Virus record (IMG/VR): IMGVR_UViG_2778261179_000021
Coordinates: 1-35,334 of that record
DNA from: a virus
Taxonomy: Duplodnaviria > Heunggongvirae > Uroviricota > Caudoviricetes
DNA length: 35,334 nt
Strand: one strand, 5' to 3'
A program made the position numbers and the translations under genes. Positions 2,964-33,882 of the stretch are shown here, piece after piece. Position 1 is the stretch's first letter; each line of letters opens with the position of its first letter. The notes below the pieces were generated by a model. That model saw only the letters and a program-made list of their open reading frames with translations. It had not been told where the DNA came from and did not search any database.

Positions 2964-2990
2964 AGGGACTCTTCGGAGTCCCTTTTTTAT
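2964..2990 (+). terminator. intrinsic terminator (AGGGACTC-TTCG-GAGTCCCT plus T6)
   Basis: 8-bp stem, TTCG loop, TTTTTT run; abuts the stop codon of the convergent minus-strand gene. Confidence 0.65.
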
Positions 2991-3928
2991 TGGCAGTAAG
3001 AAAAGTTAGTACCGTACATTTCATCATGAAGCATTGCAGCATTGCGTTTCTGTTCTTCTTCCTCGTCTACCGCATCACTAGAAAAATGAGATTTGCCCTT
3101 AAAAGAACGAAGCAATTGCAGTGCAGCCATCGGATCACGCATCACATCGATTTTCACTTCTACTTCATCATTTGCGGCCTCATCAGCCGCATTTTCAACT
3201 ACTGCCACCGGAGCAACTTCTTTAGCTTTCAGTTCTTCAATTTCAGCTTTCTGGGCTTCGATAATCTGGTCTTTTTCTTCCAGTGCAGCTTTCAGTTCTG
3301 CGATCTGTGCTTCCAGTGCAGCAAAGCGATCTTCTACAACAGGAGAAACAGCATTAACCTGTGCTTCCAGTTCCAGAAATGCTTCGCAAGATTCAATACG
3401 TTCTTTCTCTTCACCTTCATAAGCAACCAGTTCTACAACTTCTTTTTCGGTAGCGTGGCTGTTAAAGAATACAGCAAAGTAAGGATTGCCGGATTTAGTG
3501 AAGTTCAGTTTAGCTTTTCCGGTAACTTCTTTACGACGACCGAAGGTGATCTGGCAATCAGCGGTATCCTGAAAATCCATGTTAGGAGCGGAAACGATAG
3601 CAGTATCACCAGCAATCACCAGGTGGAACAGTTCAGAAGAGTTCTTAACGGTAAAGGTAACGATGTGGTCTACTGCAACGTCTTTAGCAGGTTTAACGCG
3701 GTCGATTGCTTTACGAATGCCGTTAGGCAGTTTACCGTCAACACCAAAGCCAGCCGCGATCAGTGCTTCACGATGTGCTTTAAAGCCAGCGAAAGCGGAT
3801 TTCTGCTGCGCAAAGGAAACATGAGCAACAACTTTCGGCTGAATCTTCTTGTTTGCTTCGGTGCCAAATTTGATAACTGCTTTAGCGTTGGTTACTTCGT
3901 TAGTGAAAAAGTTAGCGGAAAATAACAT
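2987..3928 (-). CDS. hypothetical protein with central coiled coil and acidic C-terminal region (313 aa)
   Basis: ATG at 3928 with GGAG RBS; long ORF; heptad-like region ...FAALEAQIAELKAALEEKDQIIEAQKAEIEELKAKE...; second gene of a leftward operon downstream of LexA-like boxes. Confidence 0.7.
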   Translation of the reverse strand: MLFSANFFTNEVTNAKAVIKFGTEANKKIQPKVVAHVSFAQQKSAFAGFKAHREALIAAGFGVDGKLPNGIRKAIDRVKPAKDVAVDHIVTFTVKNSSELFHLVIAGDTAIVSAPNMDFQDTADCQITFGRRKEVTGKAKLNFTKSGNPYFAVFFNSHATEKEVVELVAYEGEEKERIESCEAFLELEAQVNAVSPVVEDRFAALEAQIAELKAALEEKDQIIEAQKAEIEELKAKEVAPVAVVENAADEAANDEVEVKIDVMRDPMAALQLLRSFKGKSHFSSDAVDEEEEQKRNAAMLHDEMYGTNFSYCQ

Positions 3929-3970: not shown

Positions 3971-4004
3971 AAAAGCCCCCTTGTTGCCGCAAGGGGGCTT
4001 TTTT
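3971..4004. terminator. bidirectional intrinsic terminator
   Basis: 9-bp perfect stem GCCCCCTTG/CAAGGGGGC flanked by AAAA on the left and TTTTTT on the right. Confidence 0.6.
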
Positions 4005-4042: not shown

Positions 4043-4222
4043 TTACCAAACGGTAGCTTCAATCTTCACTTTAATGTCATATCGTTTTAGCAGTTTTCTA
4101 AAATCAGAGGGGTCAATCCCTTCTTCCTTCAAAACCGCCAGCTTGTCACCCTGCATCGCTTCAAAATAACGTTTAGCAATCGGGAGTAATACTTCTCGTG
4201 TGAATCGTACAGGTTTAGCCAT
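4043..4222 (-). CDS. small HTH-module protein (59 aa), paralog of the 7412..7645 and 7675..8280 proteins
   Basis: Internal ATG at 4222 preceded by GAGGGA RBS (track ORF starts further upstream at 4282); motif PVRFTREV...EEGIDPSDFRKLLKRYDIKV...IEATVW is shared with the 77-aa protein (RFTKEQ...HGISIAQFYKNMKKLDIKF...IVEATGF). Confidence 0.55.
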   Translation of the reverse strand: MAKPVRFTREVLLPIAKRYFEAMQGDKLAVLKEEGIDPSDFRKLLKRYDIKVKIEATVW

Positions 4223-4320
4223 TTTTAATCCCTCATTGTTAGGTTTAAAAAATCTTAAAAAAGAGCTTTTCGCTCTGAACAATTCTATTTATAAAATGTT
4301 TTTCGAAAAACCCTGTAAAA

Positions 4321-4342
4321 CCACTGTATATCCGATCAGTGG
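4321..4342. promoter_or_regulatory. LexA-box-like inverted repeat (CCACTGTATATCCGATCAGTGG)
   Basis: CTG-N10-CAG with a consensus-like left half ACTGTATAT; lies immediately upstream of a candidate minus-strand -35 (TTTACA) for the 4222 gene. Confidence 0.4.
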
Positions 4343-4405
4343 GAGCACGAATTGCTAAAGAGAAGATTAATAATTAATCAATCCGTACAATATTCAACCG
4401 AAAAA

Positions 4406-4444
4406 GCACTGTATATCTAACCAGTGCTGTATGAGTTAACAGTG
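4406..4444. promoter_or_regulatory. two overlapping LexA-box-like sites, including TGCTGTATGAGTTAACAGTG (CTGT-N8-ACAG)
   Basis: 4406..4427 GCACTGTATATCTAACCAGTGC; 4425..4444 matches the SOS-box core CTGT-N8-ACAG with the left half CTGTATGAG as in the E. coli recA box. Confidence 0.5.
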
Positions 4445-4580
4445 AGTCAGGAGATTTTCAGAAGTGAACAATCATTTTTCATGCATGTATTTATACACGA
4501 AAAAATCATGCTTATCATCTATATGGGGATTGTTTGGAAAATTTCAACCCTTACCAGTGATAAAAAGTATAAAATAGTTC

Positions 4581-4594
4581 TTGACACATGTCAA
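4581..4594. promoter_or_regulatory. operator-like imperfect palindrome TTGACACATGTCAA overlapping a -35-like TTGACA
   Basis: Outer arms TTGAC/GTCAA perfectly symmetric; TTGACA hexamer at 4581..4586. Confidence 0.3.
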
Positions 4595-4790
4595 CAAACA
4601 TGATCTAAGCGAGAGGTGACTATCAAAATTTTTGTTTGAAAATGGTAGATTAGGATTATCAACCTTTATAATCTATTATGGCACGGAGACCTTTTGATGA
4701 TTCCTTTTAAATCATTAGATTACGCCACTTTTTGGTGATTTTTTGGTTAAATAATATACAATAATTTTCTATCAAAATATTTGATGGGAA

Positions 4791-4986
4791 TTGCCCCCGA
4801 AATTCTGAATTTTTGCCCCCGAACAAAATCCCAAGATTCTACTATCCTATTTTTGCCCCTGAAACCTACTATTTTTGCCCCTGAAATTCTGGGAAACAGT
4901 GATTTTGCCCCTCATTTTTGCCCCTGAAATGCCAATAATTGCCCCTGAAAATCTAATTTTTGCCCCTGAAATTTTCCCCCGAAAAG
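4791..4986 (+). repeat. iteron array: about 9 direct copies of TTTTTGCCCCTGAAA
   Basis: Cores at about 4793, 4815, 4855, 4877, 4907 (degenerate), 4920, 4941, 4962, 4976 (degenerate), all in the same orientation, with spacings of mostly 21-22 bp or multiples; inside a 1.4-kb region lacking credible ORFs. Confidence 0.8.
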
Positions 4987-5118
4987 GATTGGTGAGAAAA
5001 ACTCTTTATAAAACATTAACTTGGGTGGGGGTAAAGGCGGGGGATTCGGCGTGCATAGATATTATATAACACATTCGCTACGCTCATGTGTAAAACCAAA
5101 AATAACCAAAAAGATATT

Positions 5119-5138
5119 AGGAGGGCTTTGCCCGACTG
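5119..5138 (+). repeat. 20-bp direct repeat copy 1 (AGGAGGGCTTTGCCCGACTG)
   Basis: Matches 5508..5527 at 19 of 20 positions; contains internal GGGC...GCCC dyad. Confidence 0.75.
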
Positions 5139-5507
5139 CGCGAAGCGCTAACCAATTACTTCTAGTAACAACTAATTTAAACTAGATGATACTAGATGGT
5201 CTTAGAAGGAATTAACTAGTTTGCTCGCTCGCTTCGCTCACTCTCAAACGTCTGCGACGCCACTGCGTGGCATCGAGAATCACTTTTGAAAGGATTTTCT
5301 TAGAAAGGGATTTAATACTAGTTACTAACTGATTCTAGTAAACGAACGAAGTGAGTAACAATCACTTTCTAGAAAGGTATTGGTATCCCTTCGGGATTGC
5401 AACCTTCGGTTGCTAAATTGCTTCCTGATTATTATTTCTCCAAAAGAAAGATTCTTATATTCTAAAGATACTTCTTCGTTTTGATGATGATTTAATCAAA
5501 ACTATGA

Positions 5508-5527
5508 AGGAGGGCTATGCCCGACTG
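5508..5527 (+). repeat. 20-bp direct repeat copy 2 (AGGAGGGCTATGCCCGACTG)
   Basis: Matches 5119..5138 at 19 of 20 positions; 389 bp downstream of copy 1. Confidence 0.75.
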
Positions 5528-5612
5528 AATACAATCACCTTTCATAATAACAAGAATTTTCTCTTTATAAATAATATTAGATTGATTCACTTTCTTTTAG
5601 AGGATTTCCACT

Positions 5613-8367: not shown

Positions 8368-10272
8368 ATGAAACTGATTTCGAACAAGGCCAAATTAAAA
8401 AAGATTCTCAGAAATGTTTCTGCTGCAATTCGCCCACCTAAAGCGATGAAACCTAGTGAATGGGTAGAGGCTAATGTAGTTGCAACCGATGGTGTTAAAG
8501 CCGGATCTCTTATTAAATTGCATCACTTCCAACGTGGGATGATGGACGCGATTACCGAAGATAAGCGAAAGATTGTCATGAAATGCTCGGCGCAGTTGGG
8601 TAAAACTATGGTGCTCAACGGTATTATCTTTCACAGGATCGCCACCAATCCAACCAATATAGGTGTTTTACAAGCGAACGTTCGAGAATTGAACTCATGG
8701 ATCGCGGGTAAGGTGAAGCCAGTATTAGAGGCAACCCCAGAATTAAAGGCGATGATCACCGACAAATCGGATCGCAATGCCGTTAATAACACATCGCAGA
8801 TACAGCTTAGAAATGGGTCGTTTCTTTATTTCATGTCATTGAATAGTCCATCCCATCTCCGGGGTAAGACTTTGCCGTTGATCCTTGCAGACGAGGTGGA
8901 TGGTTGCGACGAATCAGACGAAGGGAACCCGATCCAGCTAGCGGAACAACGTGCTTCCACTTTCGGGGAAGATGCAAGGATCGTAATTGCTTCTACTCCA
9001 ACGTCGCGGGATGGGGCGATAAACCAACAATACGAACTCTCAGATAAACGAAAATACTATGTTCCATGCCAGCATTGCGGACACCGACACGTAATGGAAT
9101 GGAGTAACGTTCATTTCGATTGGCATCAAGTTAACGGTAAATCACTGCCTAACCCAGATACAGCCGTTTATCGTTGCCCGTCATGTGAAACTGATTGGAC
9201 AGAAGGGGATCGCCTACGTGCTGTTGCTAAGGGAGAATGGATCGCCACCGAACCTAATGCGGAAGTAATCGGTTTTCATGCTAACCGCCTTATGTCTCCG
9301 TTTAGTTCTATCCGTGCGTGTGTGGTGGATTTTGCTGATAGCTACGCGAATATGTCACTGGCAACGTTCTATAACACTGTCTTAGGTGAAACCTTCGATG
9401 ATCTTAACGAAGACCGCACAGCCGACGAACTGGAAACGCTGAAAACTGACATTAGCCTAGACAACATCCCCGATGATGTTCTGGCTCTGGTTGGTGGTGT
9501 TGACCAGCAAAAAGACCGTCTGGAATCTACCTTGCTGGGTATTTCTCGTAAAGGGCTATGCGTAGTTGATCACCGATCATTCTATGATGTGAACTGCGAA
9601 CGCCACGAATCGCCAGCATACAGCCAGCTTTACAACTTCCTGAAAGCGAAATTCTATACCCGATCCGGTCAACGAATCCCAATGCTATCTGCTTTCGTGG
9701 ACTCATCAAACGGACGAGCTACGCAAGTGATCTACCGATTCTGCACACAATGGCAAAACCTAACAGCCATTAAAGGGGCAAGCAATGTTGATGCACCAAT
9801 CCTTCCGGTAAAAGACACAAGAACGGGCGGTTTTACTCTCAAAATTCTGGGCGTAAACAACCTTAAGACGATGATCCGTGAAATGATTAACCGGAACTTG
9901 AGAGATGGCGATCCTCACACTGTTTTCCAGATTGGCGACGTTCCTGATGACTATTGCGAGCAATTGCTTTCTGAACAGTTGAAACGGCAGGGTAATACCA
10001 CACGTTGGGTAAAAGTTGGTCAGCAACGAAACGAGGCGCTCGACTGCCTGGCTTATTCCTATGCTGCTTCTCGCCATGTACTCAATAAAATGTCATGGGA
10101 AAAACTCGAAGCCATCAAAGATAGTTTGAACCGTGAACCAGAAGAATCCGTAGAAGCTCCTAAATCGCAATCTGACGAGAAAATAGAAGAAACTAAGCCA
10201 ATCACACGACCACAACGTCAAAACATCGCCAGACGCCCAAATAGAGGCCGTAGCTGGGTAACATCGTTCTAA
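8368..10272 (+). CDS. terL: terminase large subunit, lambda GpA family
   Basis: 634 aa; by-eye matches to lambda gpA landmarks: SAQLGKT Walker-like segment, zinc-ribbon-like PCQHCGH...RCPSCETDW, FYNTVLGETFD (lambda FVNTTLGETWE), QRNEALDCLAYSYAA (lambda RRNEALDCFVYALAA). Confidence 0.85.
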   Translation: MKLISNKAKLKKILRNVSAAIRPPKAMKPSEWVEANVVATDGVKAGSLIKLHHFQRGMMDAITEDKRKIVMKCSAQLGKTMVLNGIIFHRIATNPTNIGVLQANVRELNSWIAGKVKPVLEATPELKAMITDKSDRNAVNNTSQIQLRNGSFLYFMSLNSPSHLRGKTLPLILADEVDGCDESDEGNPIQLAEQRASTFGEDARIVIASTPTSRDGAINQQYELSDKRKYYVPCQHCGHRHVMEWSNVHFDWHQVNGKSLPNPDTAVYRCPSCETDWTEGDRLRAVAKGEWIATEPNAEVIGFHANRLMSPFSSIRACVVDFADSYANMSLATFYNTVLGETFDDLNEDRTADELETLKTDISLDNIPDDVLALVGGVDQQKDRLESTLLGISRKGLCVVDHRSFYDVNCERHESPAYSQLYNFLKAKFYTRSGQRIPMLSAFVDSSNGRATQVIYRFCTQWQNLTAIKGASNVDAPILPVKDTRTGGFTLKILGVNNLKTMIREMINRNLRDGDPHTVFQIGDVPDDYCEQLLSEQLKRQGNTTRWVKVGQQRNEALDCLAYSYAASRHVLNKMSWEKLEAIKDSLNREPEESVEAPKSQSDEKIEETKPITRPQRQNIARRPNRGRSWVTSF

Positions 10273-16219: not shown

Positions 16220-19200
16220 ATGCAGTCGATCCAATTTAAACGCACACAGACGGCTGGTAAAAAACCAACGCCGGAACAATTATCACAGGGTGAGATCGCC
16301 TTACAACTGGCGGACCATGTGATTTACACCAAAGACAAAAATAATAATGTAGTTCAAATTAGTGTTTCTCCAGAAAAACACGCTGAACTGAATACGAAAG
16401 TAGACAATAACAAAACTAGCACTGACCGTGTTATTGCAGCAAATAAGAAAGAAGCTGCTGATAATCTGGCTAGTGCTAAAGCTGAACTTAATCAGACTAT
16501 CACTTCTACCCGTGATACCCTCAATGCTTCAATCACTGCTGGCGATACCGCAGCCAACAAACGAATTGATGCTTTGACTACCACAGTAGGTAACAATAAA
16601 ACCGAAGCGGCTAACGCTCTGGCGGCTGCTAAGACTGAACTGAATCAGACTATTACTTCAACCCGCGATACTATCAACGCGACAATTAACAAGAACAAGA
16701 CAGATATTAATGCGCGAGTTGATCAGACGAATACCAACGTTACCAACTTAACGAATACTGTCGCAGCAAATAAATCAGCAATAGAAAAGACGGTAGCGGA
16801 TAATAAGAAAGATGCGGACACGAAGATCACCAATCTTACTAGTACGGTCTCTGCGAATAAGACAGCCATTGAAAGAACTGTTGCAAATAACAAGGCCAGT
16901 GCCGATGCCGCAATTGCCGCAGCTAATCAGCGAATTGATTCGATTGAAGGTAGTGCCGATGCTGCTTACATCAAGAAGAATACCAACACTTACCATCACG
17001 GGTATTTGTTAAGCAAGACCGCTAACTATTTTGATGATGCTGGCGCACGTAACCTTGATTATTTTGGTGCGTTTCGTCCGAACAATGCCGAAGGTTGGGG
17101 TAACTTAATCCTTAACATTCCTCATTCTGGCGGTAAAGCCCACGGTCGCGGTTTTGAGTTCCACTATGGGTCTAGCTCATCTCAAGTTAAAACCTATGGC
17201 TTTGATAAAGATGGTAATAAGCGATTCAGCTACCGCATGTATCATGAAGGTGATAAGCCGACTCCTACTGAATTGGGTGTGTATAGTAAAGCCGAAGTTG
17301 ATCAGATGTTCACTAAACCCGTTCATATGTCAACTGGTGAAAATGCGGCTGGTTACTTTAAACTGGCAACGGCAACAATTCCACAAGGGGGTCGAGGCTT
17401 TTTCATCCGTATTTTCGGTGGAAATGGTTATAACGTTAATAGTCCTGATCAGTGTGATATTGTAGAAATTGTTATCCGTTCCGGTAATGGAAATCCGAAA
17501 GGTGTAAACGTTGTTGCTTATCGTCGTAATACTAATAACGAGTTTGAAACCTTTGCGGTTAATACTTCGGGTGATAACTATGATATCTATGTGAAATATC
17601 GCAAATACACCGATAAAGTTACTGTAGAGTACGGTAAAAGTGCTGATGTGACTTTAAATGTGTATGATACACCTGAATTAACTCTCGTTAAGCCGTCTAC
17701 TGGTGTTAACGAAGGTCGTGTTATTACCTTGTTTAATACTGAAAATAAACGCGGTACTCTGTCCTTTGATAATAACTCACAAGCAACTTACGATATTGTG
17801 AGTTTGAGCGCCGCACAGGACCGTAACAAAAAATATCTGCGTAAATTCCGTAGTCAAGCGGTAGAGACCATCTGGCATGAAGTTGTTAACGGTAGTTCAT
17901 ATCGTTTAGCTACTGGTGTTACCGATTCTACTGATGTTTTTCAGATTGATTCTACTGGCTCTGTTGCTGGTCCATATAAAGGCAACGTGACTACTGGACG
18001 TATGGAATTAAACGGTGGTAGTAATGCATTAACTTTGCGTCGTCCTGCTGGACAATCTAACCATATTACATTCCAAGATAACCGTAGTGGTAATATTACC
18101 CGTCAAGGCTGGATCGGTTATGGTGACGCTGATACTAACGCATTGCAGATATATAGCGATGTAGGAAGTAACAAATTTGCATTAGAAACTAACGGTCAGA
18201 TCTCTCTGAATGTTGGCGCAACAAAAATTGTTTACTCTAACGGACAATATTATTCCGCTAACTCAGATGCATTCCGTATGATTTACGGTAATTACGGTGC
18301 ATTCTGGCGTAATGATGGCACTAAAGTATATTTGTTATCTACTGCTGAAAATGATCGTTTTGGTGGCTGGAACGGCAACCGTCCGTTCATTTACGATTTA
18401 ACTAACGGTAAAGTTACTTTAGGTGGTGATGGTAACGAAGGTGCATTAGTTCTTGAAAGAGATAGCCGTGCTGCTCGCTTTAGTAATAACGTATTCTTAG
18501 AGAAAGGTTTGCTTACGTTCTCTGCTGGTGGAAATCAGTCGATGGATTCTTTCACGATTAACCATTGGGGGAATAGTAATGCCGATCGATATAACGTTTT
18601 GCAATTCCAGGACACTAGCGGAACTCACTTTACCACTGAACGTAACGGATCTGGCGGTTTGCTTGCTCATTTCCGAGGGGATTTAACTACCGAAGGAAAA
18701 TTAACGTGGGGTAAGGGTACAGCTACTTCTAGTTTCAATATTCGTGCATGGGGCGCTGATGCTCGTAAACAAGTATTTGAATGTGCTGATGAAAGCGGTT
18801 GGCATTGGTATACCCAACGTCCGGGCGGTCCGGGTACTACGGCAATTGAGTTTGCTATCAACGGTACTGTTAAGCCTCAAGCAATTCACACTGGCGGCAA
18901 TATTCTTTTGAACGGTGCTGATATTGAATTTCGTCGCACTGGTAATAAGCATATCTGGTTTAGAGATCCAACTGGATTAGAACTAGGTTTGATGTATTCC
19001 GATGATGCTGGTGTTATTCGCTTCCGTGGTCAGAAACAAGCCCAGACGTGGAAACTTGCGGATAAGATGATCCAGTTGGAATCTGGTACTGTAACCGGAG
19101 GCGGTAATGGCCTGATTCGTGGTGAAGTTGCTGGCGGTAGTTGGGCTAGCTGGCGTGACCGTGCTGCTGGCCTTATGGTTGGGTGTCCTCGATCAACCGA

Positions 19201-19738
19201 TTCCGCTCATAACATCTGGAAAGCGACACATTGGGGTAAATATCACATTGCAGCAATGGGTGTGCATGTTCCTAGTGGTACTATCGGTAACGCTCTTGTG
19301 CGTCTCCATGTTCATGATACTAACTTTGACTTTAACGCTGCTGGTGATTTTACCGCAGGTCGCAACGGTAGCTTTAACGATGTTTACATTCGCTCTGACT
19401 CTCGTCTGAAAATTAACAAGGAAGAATTACAGGACGGCGCATTAGAGAAAGTAAACTCCCTGAAAGTCTACACCTACGATAAAGTTAAATCTCTTTCCGA
19501 TGACACAGTGATTAAACGCGAAGTAGGCATTATTGCTCAGGATCTGGAAAAAGTATTGCCGGAAGCGGTAGGTATTCAATCCACAGAAGATCCAGAACAT
19601 CCAGAAGCAATCAAGACTATTTCTAACTCTGCTGTCAATGCTTTAATCATCAAGGCTATGCAGGAAATGGACGCCAAATATAAAGCGCAGATCGAAGCAT
19701 TACATAAAGAGATTGCCGAACTGAAAGCAACTAAATAA
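16220..19738 (+). CDS. long tail fibre with C-terminal intramolecular chaperone (peptidase S74-like) domain
   Basis: 1172 aa; N-terminal about 51-aa tandem repeats (…AKAELNQTITSTRDT…); C-terminal about 115 aa …IRSDSRLKINKEEL…VGIIAQDLEKVLPEAV…NALIIKAMQEMDAKYKAQIEALHKEIAELK match the self-cleaving chaperone domain of endosialidase/T5-type L-shaped fibres. Confidence 0.8.
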   Translation: MQSIQFKRTQTAGKKPTPEQLSQGEIALQLADHVIYTKDKNNNVVQISVSPEKHAELNTKVDNNKTSTDRVIAANKKEAADNLASAKAELNQTITSTRDTLNASITAGDTAANKRIDALTTTVGNNKTEAANALAAAKTELNQTITSTRDTINATINKNKTDINARVDQTNTNVTNLTNTVAANKSAIEKTVADNKKDADTKITNLTSTVSANKTAIERTVANNKASADAAIAAANQRIDSIEGSADAAYIKKNTNTYHHGYLLSKTANYFDDAGARNLDYFGAFRPNNAEGWGNLILNIPHSGGKAHGRGFEFHYGSSSSQVKTYGFDKDGNKRFSYRMYHEGDKPTPTELGVYSKAEVDQMFTKPVHMSTGENAAGYFKLATATIPQGGRGFFIRIFGGNGYNVNSPDQCDIVEIVIRSGNGNPKGVNVVAYRRNTNNEFETFAVNTSGDNYDIYVKYRKYTDKVTVEYGKSADVTLNVYDTPELTLVKPSTGVNEGRVITLFNTENKRGTLSFDNNSQATYDIVSLSAAQDRNKKYLRKFRSQAVETIWHEVVNGSSYRLATGVTDSTDVFQIDSTGSVAGPYKGNVTTGRMELNGGSNALTLRRPAGQSNHITFQDNRSGNITRQGWIGYGDADTNALQIYSDVGSNKFALETNGQISLNVGATKIVYSNGQYYSANSDAFRMIYGNYGAFWRNDGTKVYLLSTAENDRFGGWNGNRPFIYDLTNGKVTLGGDGNEGALVLERDSRAARFSNNVFLEKGLLTFSAGGNQSMDSFTINHWGNSNADRYNVLQFQDTSGTHFTTERNGSGGLLAHFRGDLTTEGKLTWGKGTATSSFNIRAWGADARKQVFECADESGWHWYTQRPGGPGTTAIEFAINGTVKPQAIHTGGNILLNGADIEFRRTGNKHIWFRDPTGLELGLMYSDDAGVIRFRGQKQAQTWKLADKMIQLESGTVTGGGNGLIRGEVAGGSWASWRDRAAGLMVGCPRSTDSAHNIWKATHWGKYHIAAMGVHVPSGTIGNALVRLHVHDTNFDFNAAGDFTAGRNGSFNDVYIRSDSRLKINKEELQDGALEKVNSLKVYTYDKVKSLSDDTVIKREVGIIAQDLEKVLPEAVGIQSTEDPEHPEAIKTISNSAVNALIIKAMQEMDAKYKAQIEALHKEIAELKATK
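16430..16930 (+). repeat. in-frame tandem repeats (about 153-nt unit) within the tail fibre shaft
   Basis: For example GCTAAAGCTGAACTTAATCAGACTATCACTTC at about 16475 versus GCTAAGACTGAACTGAATCAGACTATTACTTC at about 16628. Confidence 0.6.
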
Positions 19739-19794
19739 TAAAAGTCGGGGGACTAGTTCCCCCGTAATAACAATTTTAATTAAGGGGTAATTCT

Positions 19795-20268
19795 ATGTCT
19801 CAGCAATTTAAAGATATTTTTACTGGTGGTCTGGTAAGTCTGTTCTATCACGCCGACACCACTAATACCGCTCTCGACCACGAAAGCTACGAAGAAATTA
19901 AAGAGTGTGCTGGTTTTCCTGAAACTGGTATCGAGCGCGGTACTGTAGAAGTTAAATCCTTCTCTTCTCAGTATAACCGTAAACTGGTAGGTAAACTGAA
20001 CGTTCCTGATCTGACTCTGACCGTTAACTACATCCCAGGTGATGCGGTACATGAAAAACTGATCAAAGCTGCCGAAGACGGTACTCGTATTCAGATTAAA
20101 GTAGAATATTACGTTGACGCAGCAAAACAGACTGGTATTCGCACCGCTTTCAACGGCTTCATTTCTAAAGTTGCTATGAACGGTGGCGATGAAGAAGTTG
20201 TAACCAAAGAGTTTACCTTCGCGGTGGATGGTGCTCCGCTGAAACAGCAAATCTTCACTGCCGGATGA
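19795..20268 (+). CDS. putative major tail (tube) protein
   Basis: AAGGGG RBS; 157 aa; sits in the V position upstream of G/GT and tape measure; ends in TGA followed by the same extension module as the capsid gene. Confidence 0.5.
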   Translation: MSQQFKDIFTGGLVSLFYHADTTNTALDHESYEEIKECAGFPETGIERGTVEVKSFSSQYNRKLVGKLNVPDLTLTVNYIPGDAVHEKLIKAAEDGTRIQIKVEYYVDAAKQTGIRTAFNGFISKVAMNGGDEEVVTKEFTFAVDGAPLKQQIFTAG

Positions 20269-20388
20269 ACTAACGAAGAACTTCCCGAACCGGAACCACA
20301 GCCGGAACATGAAGCGGTGGTGATTCCAGAAGTAGAAGAAGTTACGGCGAAAGCCACAGCTAAACGAAGCCGCAAGGCTAAAGATTAA
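20269..20388 (+). other. in-frame 39-codon extension downstream of the major tail TGA stop (candidate readthrough product)
   Basis: Open in the tail-gene frame to TAA at 20386..20388; encodes TNEELPEPEPQPEHEAVVIPEVEEVTAKATAKRSRKAKD, sharing EEV-TAKAT-K--RK-K with the capsid extension. Confidence 0.5.
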
Positions 20389-20393
20389 TTATA

Positions 20394-20422
20394 AGCCCTG
20401 CCTTAATGGTGGGGCTTTTTTA
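20394..20422 (+). terminator. intrinsic terminator after major tail gene and extension
   Basis: AGCCCTGCC-TTAAT-GGTGGGGCT hairpin followed by TTTTTT; near-identical to the terminator at 14548..14575. Confidence 0.7.
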
Positions 20423-20436
20423 TTGGAGTAATCAAA

Positions 20437-20943
20437 ATGGCGAATGTCGTTAATAAGCCTGGCTGGGTCGGGTCATCTGCTGTTTCTGTAACTGGTCAAC
20501 GATGGATGAGCGCAGCAATGAACGCATTAAAGGTTAGTCGCCCAGCTAACATGAGTGCGATGTGTGGTCGTGGTATGGATACGGTTGTAGCTACTGCTGC
20601 GTGGTCTACTTCATTGGGTAATAACTGGGGTGTAACTGCTTCAAACTATCCAGTAACTGACATGCGCGGTAAAGGATCTATGGAGAACCCCGAAAACGTG
20701 GGCGTAGGGCGTCTGATTGGCGTTATCGTTGGTCAATTCAATGGCGGTACTCCTACTATGGCTGTATATCTCCAGAACGGTAGAGCGGGGAATATAACCG
20801 TTAATTTGGGTGGTGCTGCTGTCACTGTTCTTTATAACAGTATGCAAAGTGGTTTTCATTACTATTGGTTAAGCAATCCTCCGGCTGCTTTCCTTACCAA
20901 CATTAAGAAGACTGGCACTAAGCAGACTTTGAAAATCTCTTAA
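20437..20943 (+). CDS. hypothetical virion-associated protein (beta-rich, 168 aa)
   Basis: GGAG RBS; ORF between the major tail gene and the G chaperone; no recognisable motif. Confidence 0.45.
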   Translation: MANVVNKPGWVGSSAVSVTGQRWMSAAMNALKVSRPANMSAMCGRGMDTVVATAAWSTSLGNNWGVTASNYPVTDMRGKGSMENPENVGVGRLIGVIVGQFNGGTPTMAVYLQNGRAGNITVNLGGAAVTVLYNSMQSGFHYYWLSNPPAAFLTNIKKTGTKQTLKIS

Positions 20944-32153: not shown

Positions 32154-33833
32154 TTAAATTCCAAATTCTTGTAATGGACCTGGTATTTCTTCTTCTGGTT
32201 TCCAGTTCTTATCTGTCAGCATGTCTAAACATGGATGCAGAACAAGCCCGTTACTCTCCAGAATCTGCCTATCATTGATAGTCTTCAAATCAACGAAGAT
32301 CCGGCCTTTCCTCGGTCCTCTTGAATTTTCTATTACAACTCTCTGGGTCTTGCCATCGATGTATTCCAGTACAAACAAGTTTTTGTACTTGTCAATCCTG
32401 CTACACCCGATCCGTTTTAGAGCTTGCTTAATCTTAAACCGGACCTTAATGCGATCCTCGTTGTAAACATCTTCTAAATCAAATTCTACGAGCTTCTCCC
32501 AGCCTTGAGAGTCAACAGAATACATTTCCTCTTCTGCCATCTTAATTTGATTGTAGAGTGTTTCACGCTCGCTATTGAGGGTAGTAATCTGATCGGCTAG
32601 CTCCTTCGTTGCTCCTGTCATAGCAGAAAGGGTAATCAGGTTATCAATCTTGCGTGATATTTCATCAATCTGTACTTTCAAAGCCGGAACCGGATTAGCC
32701 TTATCTTCAGCAATCCAGATTTTATCAGCCAGCAATTGCAATACAGCTTTCTCTAATTGGTCGCCGCGAAAACTCCAGTTTGTATGCACACATTCAATAC
32801 GACTAGAGCGCATTGCATCGCATGAATAACGATATTGGTTAGGCCGTCTGTTTGTTCCTTTCACCTTAACCATAGCGGAACCGCAATGTTCACATTTCAA
32901 TAGACCAACACCACTAAGCAAGGGAATAGGTTTAACTTCTTCTTTGTCTCCAAAGTTACATGCTCTAACACCAATGCTTTTCTTAAGGTGATAAAACTCA
33001 GCGTCATCTAGCACACGAGGATAATAATCCTTTAACTCATACTTAACGCCATCTACAGAGATTTCCTTGATACCAATCAAAGCGCGGGTATGGAACAACC
33101 TTTCAATCATTGCCCGTGACCAGTTTGAATGCCTCTTGTGACTTGCGGCTGGTGGTGGTGTGTATGTCGCGTTAAGGTGATCCAGTATCTCGGCGGTTGA
33201 CCGTCCATTCCTGCGTAATTCCACAACTTCCTGAACAATAGGGAAGAAGACCGGATGAGGAAGCACATAACCAGATGTGGTATCAGTCCACCACATATTC
33301 TTTCCAATTTCCTCGATTGCAACAGCCGGATTTTGTGGATTTTCTTGATGAGCTTTAATCTTAATCAGTGCGCTTGAGTTAGTACGATTGCGCTTAGTCT
33401 GGCTTTCCTCATTACCACGGATGAATAAAAGGATGGAGAACATCAGGTCCATCGGGTTAGCGGTAACAGTATCCAGCGAGTAGATCTTGTTATCCATGCC
33501 AGTAACAATGGTTATCCCCCTACGGATGATTGAAAGGAATAACTCCTGCGCACTGACAATATCGGCACGGGATAAACGGTCCAAGTTTTCGATGAATAGC
33601 CAGCTACCAACAGGAACGGATCTACCTATTGCATCAAGGAAACGAGATAGCGCCCCTGTTTTGGAGTTAGCACCCTTAAACGCAGATACACCCAGATCCT
33701 GATAATCATTTACCAGTTCAAGGTCATACTTTACCGCAATCTCTCTAGCCATCCTGATTTGTCGTTCATAACTCGAACCATCATTCTGACGCATAGACGA
33801 GAAGCGAATATACGAATACAGTTTAGTTTTCAT
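32154..33833 (-). CDS. large serine recombinase (probable integrase)
   Basis: 559 aa from ATG 33833 (track start is an upstream TTG); N-terminal resolvase-type catalytic domain with YIRFSSMRQ (serine nucleophile) and …ENLDRLSR…; C-terminal extension with zinc-ribbon-like cysteines (CEHCGS…YRYSCD) and a coiled coil. Confidence 0.9.
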   Translation of the reverse strand: MKTKLYSYIRFSSMRQNDGSSYERQIRMAREIAVKYDLELVNDYQDLGVSAFKGANSKTGALSRFLDAIGRSVPVGSWLFIENLDRLSRADIVSAQELFLSIIRRGITIVTGMDNKIYSLDTVTANPMDLMFSILLFIRGNEESQTKRNRTNSSALIKIKAHQENPQNPAVAIEEIGKNMWWTDTTSGYVLPHPVFFPIVQEVVELRRNGRSTAEILDHLNATYTPPPAASHKRHSNWSRAMIERLFHTRALIGIKEISVDGVKYELKDYYPRVLDDAEFYHLKKSIGVRACNFGDKEEVKPIPLLSGVGLLKCEHCGSAMVKVKGTNRRPNQYRYSCDAMRSSRIECVHTNWSFRGDQLEKAVLQLLADKIWIAEDKANPVPALKVQIDEISRKIDNLITLSAMTGATKELADQITTLNSERETLYNQIKMAEEEMYSVDSQGWEKLVEFDLEDVYNEDRIKVRFKIKQALKRIGCSRIDKYKNLFVLEYIDGKTQRVVIENSRGPRKGRIFVDLKTINDRQILESNGLVLHPCLDMLTDKNWKPEEEIPGPLQEFGI

Positions 33834-33846
33834 ACCATTTCCAAAC

Positions 33847-33882
33847 AAAAACGCCCCTACCGCGTATTATAACGATAGGGGC
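33847..33882 (-). terminator. putative intrinsic terminator between the secreted-protein gene and the recombinase
   Basis: GCCCCTA ... TAGGGGC 7-bp stem with 16-nt loop, preceded on the + strand by AAAAA. Confidence 0.35.

Follow-up and report, generated by a model that had tools for sequence, protein, structure and literature searches.

What is the role of an ordered array of short direct repeats lying in a long non-coding region of a temperate phage, and which protein recognizes it? This question is raised by a stretch of viral DNA of 35,334 nucleotides, hereafter called the window. Our analysis showed that the window is a complete prophage of about 35 kb inserted in hicB, the truncated hicB gene being the left end of the window, and that its relatives are inserted in hicB or ycdX. 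A large serine integrase is encoded at 32154–33848 on the minus strand. In the relatives, three small genes lie beyond the integrase and are followed by a C-terminal fragment of hicB. Among the late genes are those for a lambda-type gpA terminase, a portal protein, a protease-capsid fusion, and a tail tube protein, together with gp37/gp38-like genes for fibres. A Nu1-like small terminase subunit is also present, and the array is situated between the two terminase genes.

The array lies in a hub (4223–5612) of 1,390 bp, which has no ORF conserved or annotated in most relatives. DNA of this hub was found in 58 of 5,426 complete E. coli genomes, and the prophage family also occurs in Salmonella. 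All 63 places of the prophage hub are chromosomal, and none is on a plasmid. No closely related phage was found among the deposited phage genomes. The IMG/VR contigs that match the array are proviruses from genomes, so they are uninformative on virion ends for cos mapping. Our literature search found the iteron sequence in no paper, and a search on hicB prophages gave nothing relevant to this prophage family. The sequence-only reading had recognized no replication initiator in the window, and homology searches agree with it: no helicase, primase, loader, or other replication gene was recognized among the scanned ORFs of the prophage with Pfam, PHROGs, and NCBIfam.

The array contains nine direct copies of the core TTGCCCCYGAAA at 4791–4984, every one on the plus strand, and a T-tract precedes most of these copies. 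The full iteron unit, TTTTTGCCCCTGAAA, is present in five copies. The ninth copy is degenerate (TTGCCCCTCATT, starting at 4905). The copies and the single element that lies among them are as follows.

4791, 4813, 4853, 4875, 4905 (degenerate), 4918, 4939, 4960, and 4973, plus strand: starts of the type-A iteron cores.

4826–4848, plus strand: AAAATCCCAAGATTCTACTATCC, either a relic or a lone copy, similar to the type-C iteron AAATCCCCAAGATTCCAC when compared with the type-C hub of L014.

The core starts are thus spaced by 22, 40, 22, 30, 13, 21, 21, and 13 bp. Motif search confirmed the earlier count of seven good and two degenerate copies at 13–40 bp, mostly 21–22 bp, and the description of a helically phased, single-orientation array in an ORF-free regulatory hub was likewise borne out, with all nine copies on the plus strand. 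Allowing at most one mismatch, TTGCCCCYGAAA has eight matches in the 35,334-bp window, all of them within 4791–4984 and on the plus strand, as against a chance expectation from shuffled sequences of 0.35 ± 0.59 (maximum 2). The same search found no iteron copy on the minus strand of the window. The AAAATCCCAAGATTCTACTATCC element occupies the 40-bp gap separating the second and third iterons and is kept in all type-A arrays. TRF picked up only the 21-bp and 13-bp sub-arrays of the block, because the spacing is irregular. The array is the sole non-coding multi-copy direct repeat within the prophage. It holds at least three one-way, helically phased direct repeats of about 12–22 bp, as iteron origins do.

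A CRISPR-like array was rejected, as the repeats are only 12–15 bp long, the spacers are 1–28 bp, and cas genes are lacking. Rfam contains no family matching the array. The folding z-scores of the array against shuffled sequence were +1.87 and +1.79 for the two strands, that is, less structured than the shuffles, and such weak folding on both strands fits a protein-binding site in double-stranded DNA.

The array of nine same-direction repeats is real and conserved. The sequence-only reading had proposed looking for the motif in related phages, and we found the array in relatives from both E. coli and Salmonella: the type-A array is conserved in 33 E. coli genomes, 4 IMG/VR proviruses, and 2 Salmonella loci. 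Compared with the Salmonella locus L016, the window shows an identity of 92% in the 12-bp cores and of 65% in the spacers (Fisher p = 5e-6), and the order of the iterons is preserved in Salmonella despite an unrelated left flank. Judged by this pattern of sequence conservation, the array is under selection. Alignment of the hubs of seven prophages further showed that a cassette containing the array is swapped as a block between conserved flanks at 4260–4787 and 5281–5612.

4788–5280, no strand: variable cassette, consisting of the iteron array and about 300 bp of non-coding DNA (seven-locus alignment).

At least four unrelated repeat types, together with two variants related to type A, occupy this cassette. 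The ORF at 4875–5069 over the array, previously suspected to be an artefact of the repeats, proved to be one, being absent in relatives whose cassette has another repeat. The four types are as follows.

Type A (window): TTGCCCCTGAAA.

Type B (L002–L004 and L006): AAACCTACACTA, 8 copies.

Type C (STEC1575, L014): AAATCCCCAAGATTCCAC, 5 copies.

Type D (L011–L013): at least 15 copies of (A/T)TCCCCG, in two clusters flanking an AT-rich spacer.

In each type all copies run one way. Copies of types A, A′, B, and C are most often 20–24 bp apart, and the type-D clusters frequently show spacings of 11 bp. Each array has 5–10 clear one-way repeats; type D has more, which are harder to count.

Such a series of exchangeable repeats provides a means of finding the protein that reads them. 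When the early-region proteins were searched by tblastn against six loci, one protein alone, which we call p313, followed the repeat type. Its gene and the small gene beside it are located as follows.

2987–3928, minus strand: p313, 313 aa, the predicted iteron-binding protein (from covariation and co-divergence); the gene lies 860 bp to the left of the array.

4043–4222, minus strand: 59-aa gene encoding an HTH protein, between p313 and the hub, probably in the same operon as p313.

The same result was obtained when 39 plausible ORFs of the window were compared by tblastn with two complete type-A and three type-B prophages: p313 alone segregates, with 98.7–100% identity in the type-A prophages and no match in type B. 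Cassette A was found in 33 genomes, and the type-A p313 gene is present in 33 of 33. Another four genomes have this gene without the cassette, and these are IS-truncated remnants from which the hub has been deleted. Cassette B and the type-B gene occur in an identical set of genomes (18/18). Strain UTME-9 carries both prophages, each gene lying beside its own cassette, and types C and D are accompanied by N-domain proteins particular to each.

None of the other candidate binders behaves in this way. The 59-aa HTH protein, one of the proteins proposed from sequence alone, is not supported, since the same allele (WP_021515494) lies next to type-A and type-B arrays and the alleles of this gene are independent of the iteron type. 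The Nu1-like protein, also proposed, is 90–100% identical across the repeat types and shows no covariation. The Rha, 74-aa, and 201-aa proteins likewise do not segregate with the repeat type and were dropped as binders. Megablast with the left flank of the window matched only 31 genomes, compared with 33 for cassette A and 58 for the hub, which indicates that several left-hub alleles exist within type A. The pairing of p313 with the array is not explained by physical linkage, because the intervening 59-aa gene reassorts and the left hub is multi-allelic within type A. We therefore consider it very probable, on the strength of this covariation, that the array and the N-domain of p313 form a cis-trans specificity pair, and we infer that p313 binds DNA. 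A neighbouring protein of matching specificity, as is found at iteron origins, would thus be provided by p313.

The relatives show a graded co-divergence of protein and repeat. As the N-domain becomes less similar to that of p313, the repeat goes from identical to different, as listed below.

Salmonella L016 and L017 (P0136): N-domain 61–69% identical to that of p313; same iteron in the same order.

L145 (P0123): N-domain 44% identical; TTTTTGCCCCT(C), 7 copies.

L144 (P0133): N-domain 31% identical; TTGTCC(G/T)TGA(A/G)A, 10 copies.

In L016 and L017 the left hub is unrelated to that of the window, and the C-terminal domain of the p313-like protein is of another type. The N-domains of types A and C are remote homologues of each other (hhalign probability 96.5%), as are those of types B and D (BLASTP 9e-5). 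The same N-domain, together with its array, is joined to one C-terminal module in the window and to another in PEC41 and Salmonella. In P0130, an ORF6N DNA-binding domain (Pfam E = 1e-20) is fused to the same coiled coil and C-terminal module. The co-divergence and the module swaps of PEC41 and P0130 therefore suggest that the N-domain is the specificity element and the remainder a common chassis.

The layout of p313 comprises an orphan beta-rich N-domain (about residues 1–170), a coiled coil (about 178–236), an acidic linker, and a short exchangeable C-terminal module. AlphaFold with an alignment of 10 sequences gave a model with a mean pLDDT of 65, which reaches 80–90 at residues 30–120 and is usable there; the single-sequence model was poor (pLDDT 46). 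The former predicts a beta-rich domain with two helices, a 55-residue helix at 182–236, and a disordered acidic tail, and the long helix may be read as a coiled coil. No match to p313 was found in Pfam, PHROGs, NCBIfam, or the PDB sequences. Sequence and fold searches revealed no similarity to winged-helix Rep proteins, lambda O, or primase-helicase Reps. HMMER search against 1.8 billion representatives returned only three real p313 clusters at 50% identity, together with spurious repeat proteins, and the C-terminal domain alone as a query returned one fragment only. By tblastn, no homologue of the p313-like proteins was found on PLSDB plasmids or in the deposited phage genomes. Judged by the covariation, the array and p313 probably form an iteron/binding-protein pair whose protein partner is from an unannotated family.

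What such a pair does must be judged from the rest of the hub, whose main elements are as follows.

4728–4790, no strand: AT-rich stretch (82–88% A+T over 4733–4790 by A+T profile) touching the left end of the array; a possible unwinding element.

4566–4594, minus strand: P_left, the only strong sigma-70-type promoter of the hub (TTGACA-17-TATACT), with the −35 element at 4594–4589 and the transcription start at about 4559.

4324–4442, no strand: three LexA-box-like sites, CTGTATATCCGATCAG (4324–4339), CTGTATATCTAACCAG (4409–4424), and CTGTATGAGTTAACAG (4427–4442).

4262–4276, minus strand: terminator hairpin ahead of the 59-aa gene.

3971–4002, no strand: perfect 14-bp hairpin that separates p313 from the 59-aa gene and resembles a terminator on either strand.

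5087–5095, minus strand: one consensus DnaA box, TTTTACACA, at a distance of 100 bp on the right-hand side of the array.

The AT-rich stretch terminates in a palindrome, ATCAAAATATTTGAT (4771–4785). An AT-rich flank is conserved in E. coli types A–D; in the hubs of Salmonella, L031, and L145, the sequence at this place is not conserved, being different or not AT-rich. P_left is directed leftwards at the 59-aa gene and p313, not at the array, which is 197 bp distant in the window. It scores 13–15 in every hub type, including Salmonella, and its distance to the array ranges over 45–310 bp among the relatives. The LexA-box-like sites of the window sit between P_left and the 59-aa gene, and LexA boxes were also found in the otherwise unrelated left hubs of Salmonella (TACTGTAAATCCATACAGTA). 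Promoter searches of the window and of the relatives' hubs found no conserved sigma-70 promoter overlapping the array. There is a −10-like TATAAA (TATAAT in type C) about 24 bp past the last iteron in types A and C, which is a weak element. A rightward promoter in the RB49-like segment was rejected, as the −10 part of the RB49 promoter is missing from the window. The DnaA box is found only in the E. coli type-A hubs and in L145 and is absent from the hubs of types B, C, D, and Salmonella; DnaA boxes were therefore ruled out as a feature of the family. No strict IHF consensus was found in the hub of the window.

The reading that we favour, with a confidence somewhat short of even, is that the array is the phage replication origin and p313 its origin-binding protein. 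This assignment is made by analogy and elimination. In the proposed mechanism, p313 would be transcribed leftwards from the hub, from P_left and perhaps also from a weaker promoter associated with the LexA boxes, and its expression would probably rise after SOS induction. The N-domain would recognize the 12–15-bp iterons as double-stranded DNA. Since most sites are 21–22 bp, or two turns, apart and run in one direction, the bound p313 molecules may be aligned on one helix face, where the coiled coil would join them into a nucleoprotein filament. This complex would most likely mark the origin and destabilize the adjoining AT-rich DNA. Recruitment of host replication proteins, probably by the exchangeable acidic or C-terminal module, is proposed because the phage encodes no helicase, primase, or loader.

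An origin was ranked in first place because of the number, orientation, and two-turn phasing of the repeats and because of the layout of gene, promoter, AT-rich DNA, and iterons. In the basic replicons of the plasmids P1, F, and pSC101, the order is protein, promoter, AT-rich DNA, and iterons. It is also favoured because the prophage has no other array or replication gene, yet concatemers are needed for a cos-type terminase, and because the p313 operon is probably under SOS control. The locus is similar to lambda ori/O, P1 oriR/RepA, F ori2/RepE, R6K gamma-ori/pi, and SaPI/PICI ori/Rep in its one-way repeats of 12–22 bp, their spacing of about two turns, and the AT-rich neighbour. As in other iteron origin/initiator pairs, the presumed binding protein is encoded beside its site, and matched, mutually exclusive types of protein and repeat are exchanged as modules. 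In lambda O, the N-terminal domain determines specificity and the C-terminal part is exchangeable, and the same division of labour is suggested for p313. Unlike the known iteron initiators, p313 has no similarity to Rep, lambda O, or primase-helicase proteins, and no gene for a helicase loader or other partner accompanies it. Unlike in lambda, the array lies outside the gene of its presumed binding protein, and DnaA boxes are not conserved among the hubs.

Several observations on this locus sit less easily with an origin. p313 matches no Rep, O-protein, or other family, and its homologues are missing from plasmids and deposited phages. DnaA boxes are unconserved and the AT-rich flank is not universal. 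There is no additional iteron near the p313 promoter for autoregulation. P_left has the look of a strong promoter without regulation, and lysogens could therefore contain p313, as they would a repressor. The presence of at least four allelic specificities among prophages that are about 90–99% identical is the classic pattern of an immunity region.

These last features belong to the main rival, namely that p313 is a regulator (an immunity repressor, an autoregulator, or an activator of a promoter at the array's right edge) with the iterons as operators, and that types A–D are hetero-immune or hetero-specific types. We regard this as possible, though rather unlikely. The gene and its sites lie in a divergent early-control hub, as in cI/OR/cro, there are at least four allelic specificities in near-identical phages, and p313 is downstream of the strongest, apparently constitutive promoter of the hub. 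The prophage has no other recognizable repressor candidate. The TATAAA or TATAAT of types A and C would place the last iteron near −43, a class-II activator position, and the ORF6N and Rha-type N-domains that can replace that of p313 occur in annotated antirepressors and regulators. A hypervariable, allele-specific protein/site pair in an early control region is also found in phage immunity modules such as P1 C1, Mu c, and the L5 gp71 stoperators, whose sites are, as here, asymmetric and of a single orientation. The Mu repressor has a coiled-coil oligomerization segment and a C-terminal tail, as does p313. However, 9–10 one-way repeats at two-turn spacing without dyad symmetry are unusual for repressor operators, and they form one tight tandem array, unlike the promoter-overlapping operators or dispersed sites of the immunity modules. 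No conserved sigma-70 promoter overlaps the array, and the one strong promoter lies at various distances from it among relatives, over the range given above. p313 is without an HTH, and the LexA boxes of the hub suggest that host LexA rather than a phage repressor holds the SOS switch, with the p313 operon SOS-induced. Two places with a type-A cassette were found in four genomes, and types A and B together in one, which argues weakly against exclusion between like types.

The remaining alternatives are much less likely. That the array is a packaging site (cosB/pac-like) recognized by the small terminase or a packaging-specificity factor is very improbable. The phage does have lambda-type gpA and Nu1-like subunits with the array between their genes. 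Lambda cosB, in a phage with this type of terminase, likewise consists of short protein-binding sites in several copies (the R sites, bound by Nu1), along with an IHF site. Against it, the Nu1-like protein is identical in the window (type A) and in C325 (type B), the TerL alleles do not segregate with the iteron type, and p313 has no terminase similarity. Moreover, a GC-rich palindrome, GCGCGGTCGCTACGCGAC (1580–1597), which is invariant even in Salmonella, lies 125 bp upstream of the Nu1-like gene. This palindrome is cosN-like and lies at the cosN/cosB position of lambda, 3.2 kb from the array. Unlike cosB, the array does not adjoin this palindrome and is 2.5 kb from the end of the Nu1-like gene. 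The earlier suggestion of a small-terminase binding array is for these reasons unlikely. A centromere-like partition site (parC/parS type) with its binding protein would be an extremely unlikely explanation. Arrays of at least ten short direct repeats are typical of parC-type centromeres such as that of plasmid R1, where the tandem repeats are bound cooperatively by ParR-type proteins; the array resembles them, and the type-D hub has two clusters around an AT-rich core. Yet no ParA, ParM, or TubZ-type NTPase was found in the scanned early, integrase-side, packaging/head, and selected tail/lysis ORFs or in the PGAP annotation of the relatives, every member is integrated in the chromosome via a serine integrase (0 of 63 places on a plasmid), and p313, unlike ParR, is not a ribbon-helix-helix protein. 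Hardly to be expected, too, is an RNA-level element, in which repeats in a hub transcript would be bound by an RNA-binding protein or would act as a protein sponge. In its favour are the length of the hub, its lack of ORFs, and its probable transcription, as well as invariant UUCG-type hairpins at 5394–5420 and the location of the repeats on a single strand in every type. But several unrelated repeat types share a spacing of about two turns (20–24 bp), which fits proteins bound along one face of double-stranded DNA, the array shows neither structure (z = +1.8 on both strands) nor an Rfam match, and no promoter reading through it was found.

If the pairing of p313 with the array holds, it would give the orphan p313 family its first function, sequence-specific iteron recognition. 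It would also provide no fewer than six matched pairs of protein and site from nature (A, A-like, A′, B, C, and D), with which the recognition code of a new DNA-binding fold could be worked out and which might serve as orthogonal parts. The principle is not new, since iteron/initiator and operator/repressor specificity modules are textbook concepts. The array would be the most probable origin, or else a master control site, of prophages in which homology searches found neither a replication gene nor a repressor.

Returning to the origin reading, a broader proposal, which we put forward as doubtful, is that the p313 family may be a previously unrecognized class of phage origin-binding or initiator proteins, with swappable orphan beta-barrel N-domains, a coiled coil, and C-terminal recruitment modules, forming with the arrays hypervariable replication-specificity cassettes in a widespread family of E. 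coli, Shigella, and Salmonella prophages. In these prophages neither a CI-type repressor nor replication genes are recognizable, and host LexA seems to throw the switch directly. If this were true, a temperate phage of 35 kb would replicate using one novel protein and host factors. The p313 family was found in at least 51 of the 5,426 complete E. coli genomes, and also in many Shigella and Salmonella assemblies, in Providencia, and in Proteus.

Repeats of foreign type were found at the borders of several iteron arrays. Directly before some type-A arrays (the iteron type of the window) there are two or three repeats resembling those of type B (AAACCTACA..., CCTACACTA), as in the IMG/VR proviruses L031, L037 and L040 and at hub positions 370-390 of L145, and these loci encode the type-A protein only. 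Three ACCTACA repeats also lie inside the type-D cassette, and two proteins resembling p313, the 313-aa putative iteron-binding protein, are encoded per type-D locus. The arrays appear to have been put together through recombination at their edges. In several type-A and type-B relatives, the terminator hairpin downstream of the Rha gene is TTTTTGCCCCTGAAnTTCAGGGGC (L001 15289, L003 8161, L005 8474, L006 8143), one arm of which is identical to the type-A iteron; the Rha terminator of the window itself differs from it. This likeness may be coincidence, or the arm may be the evolutionary source of the iteron.

Our analysis also showed the following elements in the ORF-free hub around the array:

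4324-4339, 4409-4424 and 4427-4442, three LexA-box-like sites, CTG-N10-CAG
5119-5138 and 5508-5527, a duplicated 20-mer, AGGAGGGCT(T/A)TGCCCGACTG
5205, 5288, 5303 and 5372, a further repeat family with four copies, GAA(A)GGnATT, within the hub's right half
5394-5420, two UUCG-type tetraloop hairpins side by side, ATCCCTTCGGGAT and GCAACCTTCGGTTGC

One of the three LexA-box-like sites has the canonical form CTGT-N8-ACAG. LexA boxes (TACTGTAAATCCATACAGTA) are also present in the otherwise unrelated left hubs of Salmonella relatives (L016/L017 hub; L015 1-300). Because the window prophage has no recognisable CI-type repressor, host LexA may hold this prophage family directly.

The GAA(A)GGnATT copies fall partly within the conserved hub flank. 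Both UUCG-type hairpins were essentially invariant when seven hubs of types A and B from E. coli were aligned: the first had the same sequence in all seven, and the second showed one loop change (L005) and one change at the stem's base (L004). Both are also found in the type-D loci L012 and L013, while a different sequence occupies this position in L011, also of type D, and in the Salmonella hubs. An Rfam search gave no match for the hairpins, which may represent a structured RNA or a terminator within the hub.

The segment at 5426-5506 is ~79% identical to intergenic sequences of RB49-like T4-type coliphages (Krischvirus), which are present in 2-3 copies per phage genome. It matches the upstream part of PeSL, a cassette of stem-loop plus promoter (PMC2839356), and the RB49 -10 element is not kept in it. 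Further DNA in common with RB49-like virulent phages, with identity up to ~85%, was identified at ~983-1363 and ~16220-20943 of the window, and includes:

20437-20943, a Gp38_N adhesin domain

In the RB49-like phages, the counterpart stretch spans gp37, the gene for the distal long tail fibre, then ten small ORFs and, at its far end, the holin gene. This shared stretch is a tail-fibre module that T4-type myoviruses and a temperate, siphovirus-like prophage have exchanged.

Analysis of the packaging genes revealed these features:

1580-1597, a GC-rich palindrome, GCGCGGTCGCTACGCGAC, lying 125 bp before the start of the Nu1-like terS gene
1722-2276, the small (Nu1-like) terminase gene
8368-10272, the large (gpA) terminase gene

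The palindrome is unchanged across E. coli and Salmonella relatives and is followed by TAACCC repeats, and it is a candidate cosN/cosB. The split order of the Nu1-like and gpA genes is unusual in a lambda-type packaging module. The 6 kb separating them includes the entire early-control region.

Three paralogous small proteins are encoded in the window:

4043-4222, minus strand, 59 aa
7412-7636, minus strand, 74 aa
7675-8280, minus strand, 201 aa

The 201-aa paralogue has repeated copies of a ~60-aa unit common to the other two. None of the three has a family assignment, and their allele identity is just 46-70% between otherwise similar prophages.

At the C-terminus of the type-B protein of C325 (L003 3872-4927), the AY dipeptide repeat is expanded (AYAYAY...AA) relative to DEC5A, where it reads AYAYAA. 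An -AA terminus, reminiscent of ClpXP-type degradation tags, is seen in several members of the protein family. Many members of the prophage family are decaying (L007-L010, L139, L142): insertions of IS3, IS5 or IS2 have cut short the integrase, the capsid gene or p313 and have removed the hub.
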